Assembly (NCBI GenBank): GCA_018302105.1
Contig: JAGWAD010000023.1
Coordinates: forward strand, 10,405 to 74,404
Direction of reading: 5' to 3'
Length of the DNA stretch: 64,000 bases
Source: Candidatus Woesearchaeota archaeon
Lineage (GTDB): Archaea; Nanobdellota; Nanobdellia; SCGC-AAA011-G17; GW2011-AR18
A program made the position numbers. Shown piece by piece: positions 33,001 to 39,000 of the stretch; the first letter of the stretch is position 1; every line of letters begins with the position of its first letter.

Positions 33001-36000
33001 AAACAGTTGTAAGAATAAAAATGTTAAAAATATTTATACCATGTTATAATGAAGAAAAAGCAATAGAAAAAAATACTAAAAAAGTATACGAAATATTATC
33101 TTCTAAATTTAAGAATTTTAAATTATATGTAATTGATGATGGTTCAAAAGATAAAACTTCTGAAATATTAAAAAGATTAAAACTAAAAAATTTTGTATAT
33201 GTGAGATGCAACGGTCCATCGAGAAGGGAAAATTTAGTCCAATCCATGTGCAGATATTCAAATAATAACGATTTAATCGGTTTCATGGATGCAGATAGAT
33301 CTACTGGAGAAGAAGCTTTGGATTTAGCAATAAAAGCAATAGAAAATAATTATGATATTGTAATAGGAAGCAGATATGTAAAAGGTGCAAAAATAAAAAG
33401 AAAATTAGACAGGAGAATAATATCATTTTTATTTAATTTATCTGTAAGAATATATTTTAATTCAAAGATAAGAGATCATGAATGCGGTTTCAAATTTTTT
33501 AAAGCAAAAATATTAAAAGATTTAGTTAAAGAAATGGGAATAAATTATGAAAGAAAAATGTTTTGGGATAGCGAAATGCTTGTAAGGGCACAGAGAAATA
33601 AATTAAAGATTCTAGAAATCCCGGTTGCTTGGGTTGAAGGCCCGAAATCTGCATTAACTTTTAAAAAAGAATTACCAATGATAAAATATGCTCTAAAATT
33701 AAGATTCAGGCTTTAGAAATGTTTAAGAAATTTACTAATAGGTATTGGTTATGAAAATTGCATTTATTTCCACATATTTTTACCCATTTACAGGCGGAGC
33801 TGAAGCAAATTGTTTTTATCTAGCAAAAGAATTAGCTAAAAAGCATGAAGTACACGTATTTACATCAGATAGAAAAGACAATAACATAATAAATAAAAAA
33901 GAAGAAATAATAGATAACATAAAGATCCATAGATGCAAAACCTTATTCAGATACAAATATTATTTTGCTTTTTATCCTTTATTATTAACAAAAATTTTTA
34001 AAGAAAATTTTGATATTATCCATACTCATTCTTTGGGATTCATCTGGCACGACATAGTTTTATTATTAAAAAAATTAAAAAATCCAAAAACAAAATTTGT
34101 GATTACACCTCATGGCCCATTTATGGCATTAAAAGATTATCCATTATGGCAAAAAATATTAAAATTTAAAGTAAAATTATTTGAAAAATTAATTAATAAT
34201 ATCTATAATTTAACTATCCAAGTTAACCCATATCAGGTAGAATGGCTAAAAAAGGATTATAATTTAAAAAATATTGTTTATGTTCCAAATGGTATAGACA
34301 AGTCAATTTTTAAAAATTACAATAAAGAAGAATTTATAAAAAAATACAATTTAAAAAACAAATTTATTATTTCATATATAGGAAGATTTCATAAATATAA
34401 AGGTATTCAGGATGTAATAAAAGTTCTTCCAGAATTAATAAAGAAAAAACCAAATTTAATTTTTATAGCAATGGGCTCTGATGCAGGCTATTTACAGGAA
34501 TTAAAAGATTTAACAAAGAAATTAAAGTTAGAAAATAACATTTTATTTATAGAAAATATATCAGAAAAAGAAAAATTGCAGGCATTAGAATCATCAGAAA
34601 TATTTATTCTTCCAAGTGAATGGGAAGCTTTTGGGATTACAGTTTTAGAGGCAATGGCAAAAGAAAACGCAATAATCTCAACAAAAACAGAAGGCGGAAA
34701 ATTCTTAGTATCAAAAGAAAATGGTTTATTATATGACTTTGGAAATTTAAAAAAATTAGAAACATCAATTGAAAAATTAATTAATGAAAAATTAAGGGAA
34801 AATATACAAAAAGATAATTTAAAGAAAGCTAAGGAATTTACATGGAATAAAATAGCAAAAAATTTGTACAAGGAGTATAACAAATTATGAAAATATTATT
34901 TATAACACCATTTTTTTATCCTGTAAAAGGAGGGATGGAAGAGCATGTTCTACAAATATCAAGAGAATTAATAAAAAGAAATCATGAGGTTATAGTTTAT
35001 ACTTCAAATTTATCAAGGGAGGGAAAGATTAGTAATAAAGGGGAGATATATAAAAAAATAAAAATTAAAAGATTCAATTCTCTATTTAAGATTGGAAATT
35101 TTGCATCATTTTTTCCTGGGATGTTTAGAGAAATTAAAAAAGAAAATCCAGATATTATACATGTCCATAGTTATAGACATCCTTCTAATTTAATACCTTT
35201 ATTCACTCAAAAACATTGTTTTATAACATTACATTGGCCAAATTATCCAAAAGGTTTAAGGAATAAATTTAATGATATAATAATACCAATATTTGATAAG
35301 ATAATAGGAAAATTCTTATTAAACAAATACAAAAAATTAATAGCTGTAAATGGATTAGAAGTTGATTGGTTAAAAAATAAAATGAAAATAAATCAAAATA
35401 AAATTAGTTTAATCCCGAATGGTATACCAAAAGAATATTTAAAAATAAGAAATAAAAATTTTAAAGAAAAATTAAATATTAAAAATAAGTTATTGATTTT
35501 AAGTTTATGCAGAATACATAAAAGTAAAGGATTAGATTTAATTATTAAAGTTTCTAAATTCTTTCCAAAAGTTAAATTTATTATAGCAGGACCAGATGGG
35601 GGATATTTAGAAGAATTAAAACATTTAAAAGAAAAATTAAAAGTTCAAAATGTAATTTTTACAGGAGAAATAAAAGAAAGTGATAAATTAAATTTAATTA
35701 GTTCAGCAGATATTTTCTTGTTTCCAAGCCATTATGAGGCATTTGGTATAGTTATATTAGAAGCTTTTTCTCAGAAAGTACCAGTTATAAGTTCTGACTC
35801 TGGAGGGTTGCCATGGGTAATAGATAATGCTGGATTAGTTTTTGAAGATAATAATTTAGAAGATTTAAAAATAAAATTAGGTAAATTATTAAATAATAAG
35901 ATTTTAAGAGAAAAATATTCAAAATTAGGTTATGAAAGAGCAAGAATGTTCACATGGGACAAAATAGTTGATAAATTGGAAAATGAATATAAAAAAATAT

Positions 36001-39000
36001 AATTCTAAGGTTATTACGAAAAAATCTAAAAGTGAAGGTTTTGGTATATTTACAGATAAAAATTTTAAAAAGGATGAATTAGTATTTGTATTTTCTGGAA
36101 AGATTGTAAATTGGCAAAAAGCAAATTATCAAAGCCTGCAAATAGGAAAAAATAAATTCATTAATCCTTATAAAAATAATCCAGGAGTATACCTTAATCA
36201 TTCTTGTAATCCAAATTGTTTTGTAAAATATCCAAACAAAATAACATCAATAAAAAATATAAAAAAAGGGGAGGAAATAACAATCGATTATTCTACGACT
36301 GTTGGAACAAAAAAATGGAAAATGGAATGTTTATGTAAAAGTAAAAATTGCAGAAAAATCGTAGAGCCATATTTGGAAATTTCAGATAAACTAAAAAATA
36401 AATATAAAAATCATACAAGTGAATATTTACTTCAATAGAAATTCTTTATGCAAAAACAAACCCCTTACAAACCAATACATAACATACAACTCAAAAGCAA
36501 ATAGAAAATACCAATTTGCAAACGGTTGAATTTTAAGAAAGAAATTTATTTCTACAAGAAGGACTATAATAACTCCCAAAAAACCATACACTTAAACACG
36601 ATAATTTATAATGCATTCAATTTATAAATATTTCAATTTCCTAAATATGATGATTTCAATAATAATAACAGCATACAGAGAGCCAAATACAATTGGAAAG
36701 GCAATAGAATCTTTTCAAAATCAAAAATTAAAAGAAAAACATGAAATAATTGTAGTAGCTCCAGATAAAGAAACAATAAATATTGCAAAAAAATATAAAG
36801 TAAAAATAGTTAAAGACCGAAATAAAGGAAAACCAGCAGCATTAAATTTAGTATTTGAAGCAACTAAAAAATCAGATATATTAATATTGACTGATGGTGA
36901 TGTTTATGTTAGTCCTAATTCAATCTCTAATCTATTAAAGCCATTTACCGATAGGAGTGTTGGAGCAGTAACTGGCAGACCAATATCACTAAATCGAAAA
37001 GACGATATGTTAGGTTTCTGGTCTCATTTGCTTACAGAAGTTGGAGCACACGAAACAAGATTAAAATTATATAAAAAAAATAAGTTCATAGTTTGTTCAG
37101 GTTATTTAATGGCAATAAGAAATAAAATTATAAACCAAATCCCAGAAAATGCATTAAGTGATGATGCAGTAATTTCAAATTTAATTTATTCAAAAGACTA
37201 TAAAATTGCTTATTCACCAGAATCTTTAGTTTATGTTAAATATCCAACAACATTTAAAGACTGGATAAAACAAAAGAAAAGAAGCACAGGCGGCTATCTG
37301 CAAATAAAAAAATTAGCTTATAGAAAAGACGGAATGAGAAGTTTTACAAAAGAAGCCTCAGGAATTATCAGGGCATTAAAATATCCAAAAAATGTAAAGG
37401 AAGTACATTGGACAATATTATTAATATCTGCCAGAATTTACTTATGGATAATAATTTTCATAGATTTAAAATTAAAAAGAAAGAATTTCTCAGATGTCTG
37501 GCAAAGAGTAGAAAGCACAAAATAAAATTAGAGTGAATGATATTATCAATAGAATACTTTTTAGATAAGAATTTCACATAATTATTTCAAATAAATTACA
37601 CTTTAAAAACATTTATGTTAAATGACAACTATAATAAAATATATAAACATAAAATAAAACTATAAAGCATGTTAAGTGAAGAAACAAGAAATAAAATCTT
37701 AAAACCTATAAAATTAAATAAAATAATTAAAGATAATTATGATTTCATATTTTTATTTATATTCTTATTCTCATTAATTTTAGGAACTTATTATCTTACA
37801 CAAACATATAATCAGGCATTATGGTTTGATGAAGCAGATTACTTAAACTTTGGAAAATATGTAGCATTTGGATCACCAGAATGGGGTTTAGGGTCAGTCA
37901 GACCGCCATTATTTCCAATAATATCTGCATTATTTTTCAAAATAGGCCTTGGAGAAATAGGATTAAGAATTTTAATGTTATTATTCTATTTATCAAATGT
38001 ATTATTAATTTACTTAATAGGAAAAGAATTACTAAATAAAAAAGCGGGAATTGTTGCTTCAATAGTTACAGCAGTTTTCTGGTCGCATTTATTTTTCAGT
38101 TTTAGGATGCTTGTAGATGTTCCAGTATTAACATTTTGGTTATTAACAACTTATTTGTTTGTATATGGTTATATTAATAACAAAAGCAGATTAGCTGTAA
38201 AGTTAATATTACCAGTTTTATTCATTGGATTTTTATTCAAATATTTAAATGCAGTTCTTGGAATCATAATCTTATTATATTTATTAATAACAGAAAGATT
38301 AAATTTTATAAAAAATAAAGGCCTGCAATTAAGTGTTTTAATTACAGCAATAATGACAATACCATTTTTCCTGTTCCAGTACTTTTATTATAAAAACCCA
38401 ATAGCATTTTTAACAACTTCTCTTGGAGACAGAACAACATTAGGAAAGACTTTCACAGATTTCTTAATATTAAATATACAGCAATTAACTCCAATGGTCA
38501 GTTATACATTTGTAATTATTTTAATTATAGGTTTAGTCAGATTATTTGAAATATTCTTAGGATTAGATCTAATAATAAAAAATAAGAATACAGAATTATC
38601 AAAGAAATTTTTCTTGTTTTTATGGTTAATTATATCACTTATTTTCATATCAAAAATAGGTTTCGGTTATTACATAGAAGAAAGATATTCATTTATGCTT
38701 TTTGCAGCCATGTTTTTGATTATTGGTATAGGCTTAGATTGGTTGTATGAAATAATAAAAAAACATAATAAAGTACTATCCTTAATTATAATCACATTAA
38801 TAATAATATTTGGAGCCTATCAAAATTTATCAAAAGCAGATAATTTAATAAAAGATAAAGCTGAATCATTCAAACAGGTAAAACAAGCAGGCCAGTTTTT
38901 GGAAAGCCATTTAGAACATAATCAGGGTTATTTATCTCCTGCAACTTCAGCAGAAATACAATACCATTCAAATAGAAAAAATTTTGGTTCAGATATTAAA

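Follow-up and report, generated by a model that had tools for sequence, protein, structure and literature searches.

Results

A SET-domain gene at the end of a run of glycosyltransferase genes

We analyzed a 64,000-nucleotide stretch of DNA from a Candidatus Woesearchaeota archaeon (GenBank assembly GCA_018302105.1, contig JAGWAD010000023.1, positions 10,405 to 74,404), which is referred to below as the window and to which all coordinates apply unless a locus is named. The study centers on a small gene on the plus strand (35983..36438) that, according to Pfam, alignment, and predicted structure, encodes a SET-domain methyltransferase of 151 amino acids (aa). This gene closes a packed run of plus-strand genes that begins with a GT2 glycosyltransferase (33021..33716) and continues with two GT4-family paralogues, termed here GT4a (33745..34890) and GT4b (34887..36002). 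The stop codon of GT4a overlaps the start of GT4b by 4 nucleotides (nt) (ATGA), and the last 20 nt of GT4b overlap the start of the SET gene. Downstream, a 54-aa open reading frame (ORF) is found on the minus strand (36427..36591), and a spacer of 172 bp separates the SET gene from a GT2 glycosyltransferase gene (36611..37525, plus strand). The latter is followed by a PMT_2-type (GT-C) membrane glycosyltransferase gene (37669..39180, plus strand), the last gene of the conserved core of this locus. An original prediction, made from the sequence alone, had placed the SET gene among glycosylation genes and had noted its 5' overlap with the upstream GT4 gene. Both observations were borne out, since the gene lies within a large archaeal glycosylation island and the overlap amounts to 20 nt when counted from the ATG at 35983 and to 35 nt when counted from the TTG at 35968.

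The maximal ORF (35968-36438, plus strand) is intact; it opens with this TTG codon, and its first ATG is the one at 35983. This ATG, which results in a protein of 151 aa, is likely the start codon and was also called as such for protein P0001, a 99% identical sequence from an independent aquifer metagenome contig. The original prediction had considered the possibility that the true start is located further downstream, leaving out the GxG region. This is not the case: the sequence between 35983 and the GxG motif contains no in-frame ATG, GTG, or TTG, so that a later start excluding this motif is impossible. The protein is basic (pI 9.7; 17.7 kDa) and soluble, and its sequence contains neither a hydrophobic segment nor a signal peptide. 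Recent horizontal acquisition was considered and discarded as a signal, since the composition of the gene (GC content, 23%; GC content at third codon positions, 14.5%) is similar to that of the neighboring genes and thus gives no sign of a recent foreign origin.

The full SET signature is present where it had been predicted (residue numbers refer to the 151-aa protein). The GxG motif EGFGIF comprises residues 18 to 23 (E18 to F23; 36034..36051), which in SET enzymes form part of the pocket for S-adenosylmethionine (SAM). The motif NHSCNPNC covers residues 72 to 79 (36196..36219), and EITIDY covers residues 98 to 103 (36274..36291). These motifs are followed by the Cys-rich post-SET segment CLCKSKNCRK of the CxCx4C-RK type (residues 116 to 125; 36328..36357), all on the plus strand. 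In an alignment of 55 homologues, residues H73, C75, E98, D102, Y103, C116, C118, C123, and R124 were invariant, N72 and S74 were nearly invariant, and G21 was kept in at least 90% of the sequences. Y103 aligns with the conserved active-site Tyr of SET enzymes, and residues C75, C116, C118, and C123 align with KMT2A, the post-SET segment being placed opposite CNCGAKKCRK of that protein. By analogy with KMT2 structures, C75 would correspond to the fourth zinc ligand that is used by the post-SET segment. As had been predicted, no other domain was detected, but the prediction had overlooked a tail of about 25 residues that is conserved across the family (residues 126 to 151; 36358..36435) and that forms two short helices in the structural model. 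Since the aligned KMT2 chains stop just after the post-SET segment, this tail is a feature of the family.

Domain identity and comparison with known SET proteins

The two checks that the original prediction had recommended, a profile search and a structure prediction, both returned SET. The entire Pfam profile PF00856 (model positions 1 to 105 of 105) matched the ORF with 55.3 bits (E = 9.7e-15), well above the gathering cutoff of 22.4 bits. The AlphaFold (AF2) model of the protein had a pLDDT of 93.6 and a pTM of 0.87, and the top 50 matches retrieved with this model by Foldseek were all SET enzymes (probability 1.00), led by MLL4, BurB, MLL1, MLL3, and ASH1L, the TM scores of the MLL and ASH1L domains being 0.62 to 0.71. 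A profile of the family aligned with the SET and post-SET regions of KMT2A through the CxCx4CRK motif (94 bits, E = 7e-26). Profile score, fold, and the SAM-binding and catalytic motifs (EGFGIF, YLNHSCNPNC, and EITIDY) thus identify the protein as a member of the SET superfamily, and the CxCx4C cysteines together with the Cys of NHSC align with a KMT2-like post-SET segment with a predicted zinc site. The ORF is therefore a genuine, intact, and minimal SET plus post-SET protein. Judged from fold and motifs, it is most likely a soluble enzyme built like KMT2 that uses SAM to methylate lysines of proteins.

The best matches in both sequence and fold were the trithorax-type KMT2/MLL enzymes (MLL1, 2w5y; MLL4, 4z4p), which share with the SET protein the GxG, NHSCxPNC, E-x-x-x-DY, and CxCx4CRK motifs as well as a catalytic module of similar size. 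There are also clear differences. (i) Unlike KMT2/MLL, the archaeal protein has no flanking domains, and nothing points to partners of the WRAD type. (ii) Its SET-I insert is some 14 to 20 residues shorter than that of KMT2, as judged from alignment gaps. (iii) The conserved C-terminal extension of 25 residues has no counterpart in the aligned KMT2 chains. (iv) Position 101, which lies opposite the Phe/Tyr switch of MLL1 (the first Tyr of its "YDY" motif), is occupied by Ile; the product specificity of KMT2 can thus not be transferred to the archaeal protein. We assume that histone-tail substrates of the eukaryotic type are not to be expected in an archaeon.

Among the small SET proteins, vSET is a viral enzyme that acts as a dimer on H3K27 and is not known to possess a Cys-rich post-SET segment. 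This minimal protein (PBCV-1 A612L, PDB 1n3j, 119 aa) aligned with residues 6 to 105 of the SET protein with E = 4.8e-6; the match is much weaker than those to KMT2A and BurB and stops before the post-SET segment and the tail. BurB of Burkholderia thailandensis (PDB 9l4t/9l4v) is a methionine S-methyltransferase of 180 aa with a SET fold. Like the archaeal protein, it is a small, stand-alone prokaryotic SET protein of similar length, and it ranked high in both fold and profile searches (68.8 bits and E = 3.8e-18 against the family profile; Foldseek TM score, 0.68 to 0.71), the match being weaker than that of KMT2A. The text of the BurB paper mentions neither zinc nor a post-SET segment. According to the same paper, BurB contacts methionine through main-chain atoms, so that side-chain motifs are not diagnostic for the substrate; a residue-level choice between lysine and a BurB-type methionine substrate, which we attempted, is hence impossible from side chains. 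Finally, Go1-SET of Methanosarcina mazei (AAM32541), the only characterized archaeal SET protein, methylates the chromatin protein MC1-alpha in vitro (PMC3980110). It is likewise a small stand-alone archaeal protein and offers a functional precedent for a nucleoid-protein target (PMC3980110). According to the literature, MC1 belongs to certain Euryarchaeota (PMC6776556), and the window genes scanned did not include one for MC1.

A large family with unrelated gene neighborhoods

The original prediction considered archaeal SET proteins to be rare, and this premise fails. A word-indexed search retrieved 389 proteins clustered at 90% identity, nearly all of which were SET-only proteins of 145 to 185 aa. 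In an exhaustive profile search, 497 representatives of 50%-identity clusters matched at E <= 1e-30, a number that rose to 9,259 when the threshold was relaxed to E <= 1e-10. Furthermore, at least 463 confirmed stretches from GTDB species-representative genomes, many of them of DPANN archaea, encode a relative. Among the matches listed, the archaeal hosts include Woesearchaeota, Pacearchaeota, Aenigmatarchaeota, Micrarchaeota, and Methanoregula, and the bacterial hosts include many phyla of the candidate phyla radiation (CPR), such as Saccharibacteria, as well as Bdellovibrio, Leptospira, Chloroflexi, Chitinophagaceae, and Devosia. The gene studied here is thus a further member of a large family of proteins of 150 to 170 aa, composed of SET domain, post-SET segment, and tail, that has a wide distribution among DPANN archaea and CPR bacteria, and is hence no rarity. 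Several databases already label its relatives "SET domain-containing protein-lysine N-methyltransferase"; a literature search for SET-domain proteins of DPANN or CPR listed no paper that treats them. In addition, many relatives (within P0121 to P0264) carry two SET modules in tandem and have a length of about 300 to 380 aa, and a few are giant multi-SET proteins, among them P0122 (1449 aa) and P0124 (1479 aa), each of which contains eight matched stretches.

The genes found next to the homologues differ from locus to locus and include hydrogenase maturation genes in a Woesearchaeote, UvrC and a histidine kinase in a CPR bacterium, adenylate kinase, an asparaginase-family gene together with TrmB, PAP2 together with Band_7, PfkB, and a class I (Trp/Tyr-type) tRNA synthetase. 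Using hidden Markov models (HMMs) built from the window's own GT4, GT2, and PMT_2 paralogues, which are of limited sensitivity, we detected a glycosyltransferase match within 10 kb of the SET gene at only 4 of 80 genome loci. Clustering of the neighbors at 92 SET loci revealed no universal partner; what was shared between loci were generic families (histidine kinases or response regulators and a membrane protein of CPR) and spurious ORFs. In these compact genomes, SET genes often abut or overlap whatever gene is located upstream.

A variable slot downstream of GT4b

We also approached the locus from the side of the glycosyltransferase. A search with GT4b yielded orthologues of 44 to 68% identity, and 20-odd orthologous loci were fetched. 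They share the layout (GT2)-GT4a-GT4b-[slot]-GT2-PMT_2, in which the GT2 gene corresponding to 36611..37525 in most relatives follows GT4b either directly or after the genes of the slot. The content of this slot varies largely: (i) it is empty in L095, L097/098, L104, L106, and L107; (ii) it contains a QueC-like gene and a small ORF in L099, L102, L105, and L108; (iii) it is occupied by a single unrelated ORF of 247 aa in L116 and by a 275-aa minus-strand gene in L174; and (iv) it harbors the SET gene and other small genes in L010/L094. In the window, the slot contains the SET gene and the 54-aa ORF mentioned above. This ORF is what an internal deletion has left of a minus-strand gene of 264 to 275 aa, of which it retains the N-terminal 21 and the C-terminal 27 residues at 76 to 78% identity, and it marks the variable slot. 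In L010/L094 and L174, the parent gene, for which no Pfam match was obtained, occupies this position in intact form.

A SET gene follows GT4b in the window and its near-identical strain L001 and in L010/L094, and it is fused to the GT4 gene in L092; about 15 other loci have none at this position. Separate and fused cases taken together, 3 of about 20 orthologous lineages thus have SET directly behind GT4b. The original prediction had asked whether SET genes recur in the glycosylation islands of related genomes, and the answer is divided: they do recur in these three lineages, but most clusters have no SET gene. Among the latter is the cluster of the closest relative, L174 (68% identity in GT4b), in which the order GT2-GT4-GT4-...-GT2-PMT_2-radical SAM is preserved. 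The conserved co-occurrence of SET and glycosyltransferase genes across relatives that would characterize a component of an Agl-type cluster was not observed, and the link of the 150-aa SET family to glycosyltransferases is confined to a few related lineages. The window groups with L174 and L094 in a neighbor-joining tree of GT4b, and for this clade the simplest reading is a single gain of the 150-aa SET gene followed by its loss in L174. Toxin-antitoxin and abortive infection (Abi) cassettes occur in the island of relatives, which is consistent with a recombination-prone region.

Comparison of alleles revealed two aberrant copies of the SET gene. The L001 copy differs from that of the window by a single nucleotide (L001 position 8217, CAT to AAT), which replaces His73 by Asn. 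The L010 allele contains the in-frame stop codons TAA TGA (8301-8306) between the SET core and the post-SET segment and encodes a product of 101 aa. Pseudogenization across the lineage was considered on the basis of this truncated product and rejected, since the sister sample L094, with DNA 99.9% identical to that of L010, carries an intact gene (7091-7537); the stop codons in L010 are thus no general sign of decay. The window copy is intact as well. The defects in L001 and L010 may be strain variants or assembly noise. In a wider comparison, L001 was 99.5 to 99.6% identical to window positions 27999-44435 with 25 alignment gaps. In L001, the radical SAM/SPASM gene is split into parts of 194 and 176 aa and the PMT_2 gene into parts of 411 and 41 aa, and the upstream PMT_2 protein has 528 aa instead of the 569 aa in the window; these split and shortened genes reflect either true strain decay or assembly errors.

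GT4-SET fusions in a separate clade

A different clade of the GT4b tree contains in-frame fusions of the orthologous GT4 with a SET domain from another family. These fusions (P0288, 491 aa, and P0290, 485 aa; loci L092 10001-11458 and L093/L100 2180-3637) are present in at least three assemblies. Their GT4 part is 51 to 52% identical, and their C-terminal SET part of 113 aa scores 41 to 43 bits with Pfam. The junction is located exactly at the usual C terminus of GT4 (...YKKT-MQNSQ...), and a close relative, P0281, is unfused.

The fused SET domain belongs to a family (P0385 to P0504) of stand-alone proteins of 107 to 110 aa, referred to here as the 108-aa family, whose members are unusually well conserved across DPANN and CPR (65 to 76% identity). 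Like the window family, it has the SET fold according to Pfam, is found in the same organisms, and can be positioned after an orthologous GT4. The two families share only about 28% identity; the 108-aa family has no post-SET segment and, while NHS is kept, reads EEITTDAT with an Ala at the position of the canonical Tyr. The contexts of its stand-alone members (including L175 5001-5324 and L176 5001-5333) are not linked to glycosyltransferases. In the AF2 model of P0290 (pTM, 0.72), the GT4 part was confident and the SET part was poor (pLDDT, 31 to 85), probably because the rows of stand-alone SET proteins in the underlying alignment were misaligned.

Locus L092 contains a second SET copy 1.3 kb downstream of the fusion. 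A helical ORF judged to be HEPN-like (12802-13503), located beside an NTP_transf_2/Polbeta (MNT-type) gene, continues in frame into an incomplete but nearly identical duplicate of the 108-aa SET domain, inside which the contig ends. This arrangement suggests a cassette insertion accompanied by duplication of SET sequence.

Other features of the window

The glycosylation island is very large (approximately 19100-60300) and encodes at least five PMT_2-type GT-C enzymes, about five GT4 and six GT2 proteins, a polyprenyl-phosphate glycosyltransferase (PF00953), a flippase-like Polysacc_synt protein, a carbamoyltransferase, a B12-binding radical SAM enzyme, a radical SAM/SPASM enzyme, and a class I methyltransferase. 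It also encodes an STT3/AglB-like oligosaccharyltransferase of 933 aa, which scored 100 bits with the archaeal STT3 model, the cutoff of which is 450 bits. The window, with a GC content of 26%, further encodes the RNase P subunits Pop5 and Rpp30 and a TrmB regulator, and the named homologues of its genes are from Woesearchaeota and Nanoarchaeia. Pop5, Rpp30, TrmB, and the STT3/AglB-like protein mark the organism as an archaeon, and the low GC content and the named homologues make it very probably a member of the DPANN. The threonyl-tRNA synthetase (7729-9441, plus strand) matched the general, bacterial-type thrS model TIGR00418 with 707 bits and reached 237 bits, against a cutoff of 484, with NF003068/PRK03991, which we take to be the model of the archaeal-type threonine--tRNA ligase. 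Scans for regulatory signals in the region 32900-39300 gave 41 sigma-70 promoter-like sites, compared with 50.5 expected, and no intrinsic terminator; neither scan is informative for an archaeon of 26% GC. Searches of the window for Rfam families and tRNAs gave no hits and were thus of no use for taxonomy.

Discussion

The data are best explained by the following view of the SET protein. It would be a stand-alone, cytoplasmic, zinc-containing SET plus post-SET enzyme that transfers a methyl group from SAM to the epsilon-amino group of a lysine in one or few proteins, in a manner similar to KMT2/trithorax enzymes. The GxG and NHS motifs would hold SAM, the cluster formed by Cys75, Cys116, Cys118, and Cys123 would fold the post-SET segment over the active site and thereby create the lysine channel, and Tyr103 would line the site of methyl transfer. 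By analogy with Methanosarcina Go1-SET, an abundant cytoplasmic protein, for example, a nucleoid protein, may serve as the default guess for the target. The SET gene is probably translated from the transcript of GT4b, as the overlap of the two genes suggests. Its location among glycosylation genes is most simply explained by the variable accessory slot between GT4a-GT4b and GT2-PMT_2, an explanation that we regard as probable; the gene would then be an occupant of this slot rather than a core component of a glycan pathway. The original prediction had left open whether the protein acts in glycosylation or is a hitch-hiker. Since the neighbors of the family as a whole are unrelated and rarely glycosyltransferases, and most orthologous clusters contain no SET gene, the hitch-hiker alternative is favored and the evidence leans toward an incidental location, the glycosylation link being kept alive mainly by the GT4-SET fusion. 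As a whole, the reading of a protein-lysine methyltransferase in an accessory slot outside the pathway core appears to us reasonably, though not firmly, supported.

Several observations weigh against this reading and speak for a coupling of SET to the glycosylation cluster, in which the enzyme would methylate GT4b, another enzyme of the cluster, or a protein substrate prior to export and so tune glycosylation or modify a glycosylated surface protein. (i) The SET/GT4b overlap of 20 to 29 nt has been kept in two lineages (the window with L001, and L010/L094), the GT4b proteins of which are only 58% identical, that is, despite a divergence of about 42%. (ii) The SET proteins of the window and L094 (67% identical) are better conserved than the flanking GT4 proteins (50 to 58% identical). 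(iii) The fusions of the orthologous GT4 in the separate clade contain a SET domain of the 108-aa type. Because the two SET-bearing groups are apart in the neighbor-joining tree, the fusion implies independent recruitment, and because it involves a different SET family, the glycosylation link is not to be dismissed. The chance that two SET genes arrive independently at the same gene end is low, of the order of 1e-3, according to a rough, post hoc estimate that assumes one or two SET genes per genome of about 1,000 genes and was not computed. We consider this recurrence of GT4 and SET to be suggestive but short of proof. On the other hand, most orthologous clusters are free of SET, including that of the closest relative, L174, and both SET families are otherwise dispersed among unrelated genes. 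With QueC-like and toxin-antitoxin genes among its other occupants, the slot acts like a hot spot for insertions. Furthermore, the fused SET domain has neither the canonical Tyr nor the post-SET segment, and its poorly modeled part in the AF2 fusion model gave no information on docking between SET and GT4. In our view, coupling is therefore possible but the less probable account. The more specific proposition that SET domains of two families were recruited at least twice independently, once as a fusion, to the 3' end of one DPANN GT4 orthogroup, and that this implies a coupling of methylation or SET-fold binding to glycosylation, strikes us as rather doubtful.

The nature of the substrate has to be considered as well. 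BurB illustrates that the substrate of a small SET protein can be a small molecule, so that the SET fold alone is no guarantee of a lysine substrate, and this also counts against the view that we favor. A BurB-like enzyme could act on a free amino acid, an amino sugar, or a glycan precursor of the cluster; BurB is among the best matches, and given its main-chain mode of binding, side-chain motifs cannot exclude such an activity. The KMT2 protein-lysine methyltransferases, however, score higher (94 bits versus 69 bits), the invariant CxCx4C zinc cluster is typical of KMT2, NSD, ASH1L, and SETD2, and no genes of dimethylsulfoniopropionate (DMSP) or sulfonium pathways were present among the window genes scanned, which makes this alternative very unlikely. 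The conspicuous presence of the family in groups that depend on a host or live as predators (DPANN, CPR/Saccharibacteria, and Bdellovibrio) would agree with an effector that an episymbiotic archaeon delivers into its host for the methylation of host proteins, similar to bacterial SET nucleomodulins; bacterial pathogens do deploy SET effectors on host proteins (PMC3980110). We nevertheless judge this to be highly improbable, as the protein is devoid of the export features looked for above, no secretion genes are adjacent, and the family is also found in free-living Methanoregula, Chloroflexi, Chitinophagaceae, and Devosia. An equally remote prospect is a decaying passenger gene without function in this lineage. 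The exchange of His73 in L001 and the two stop codons in L010 would fit decay; yet the alleles of the window and L094 are intact with all invariant residues present, SET is better conserved than its neighbors, and the several split genes elsewhere in L001 suggest assembly or strain noise.

Taken together, these data draw attention to a KMT2-like module of about 150 aa with an additional tail that is abundant in minimal genomes, and a single biochemical study of this module would provide annotation for hundreds of protein clusters. The recurrent adjacency of GT4 and SET genes, along with their natural fusion, offers a lead on a possible link between methylation and glycosylation that can be tested at low cost. 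If real, it would represent a so far undescribed connection of SET-mediated methylation, or of SET-fold binding, to protein or lipid glycosylation, in which, for example, a glycosyltransferase or its glycoprotein substrate may be methylated.

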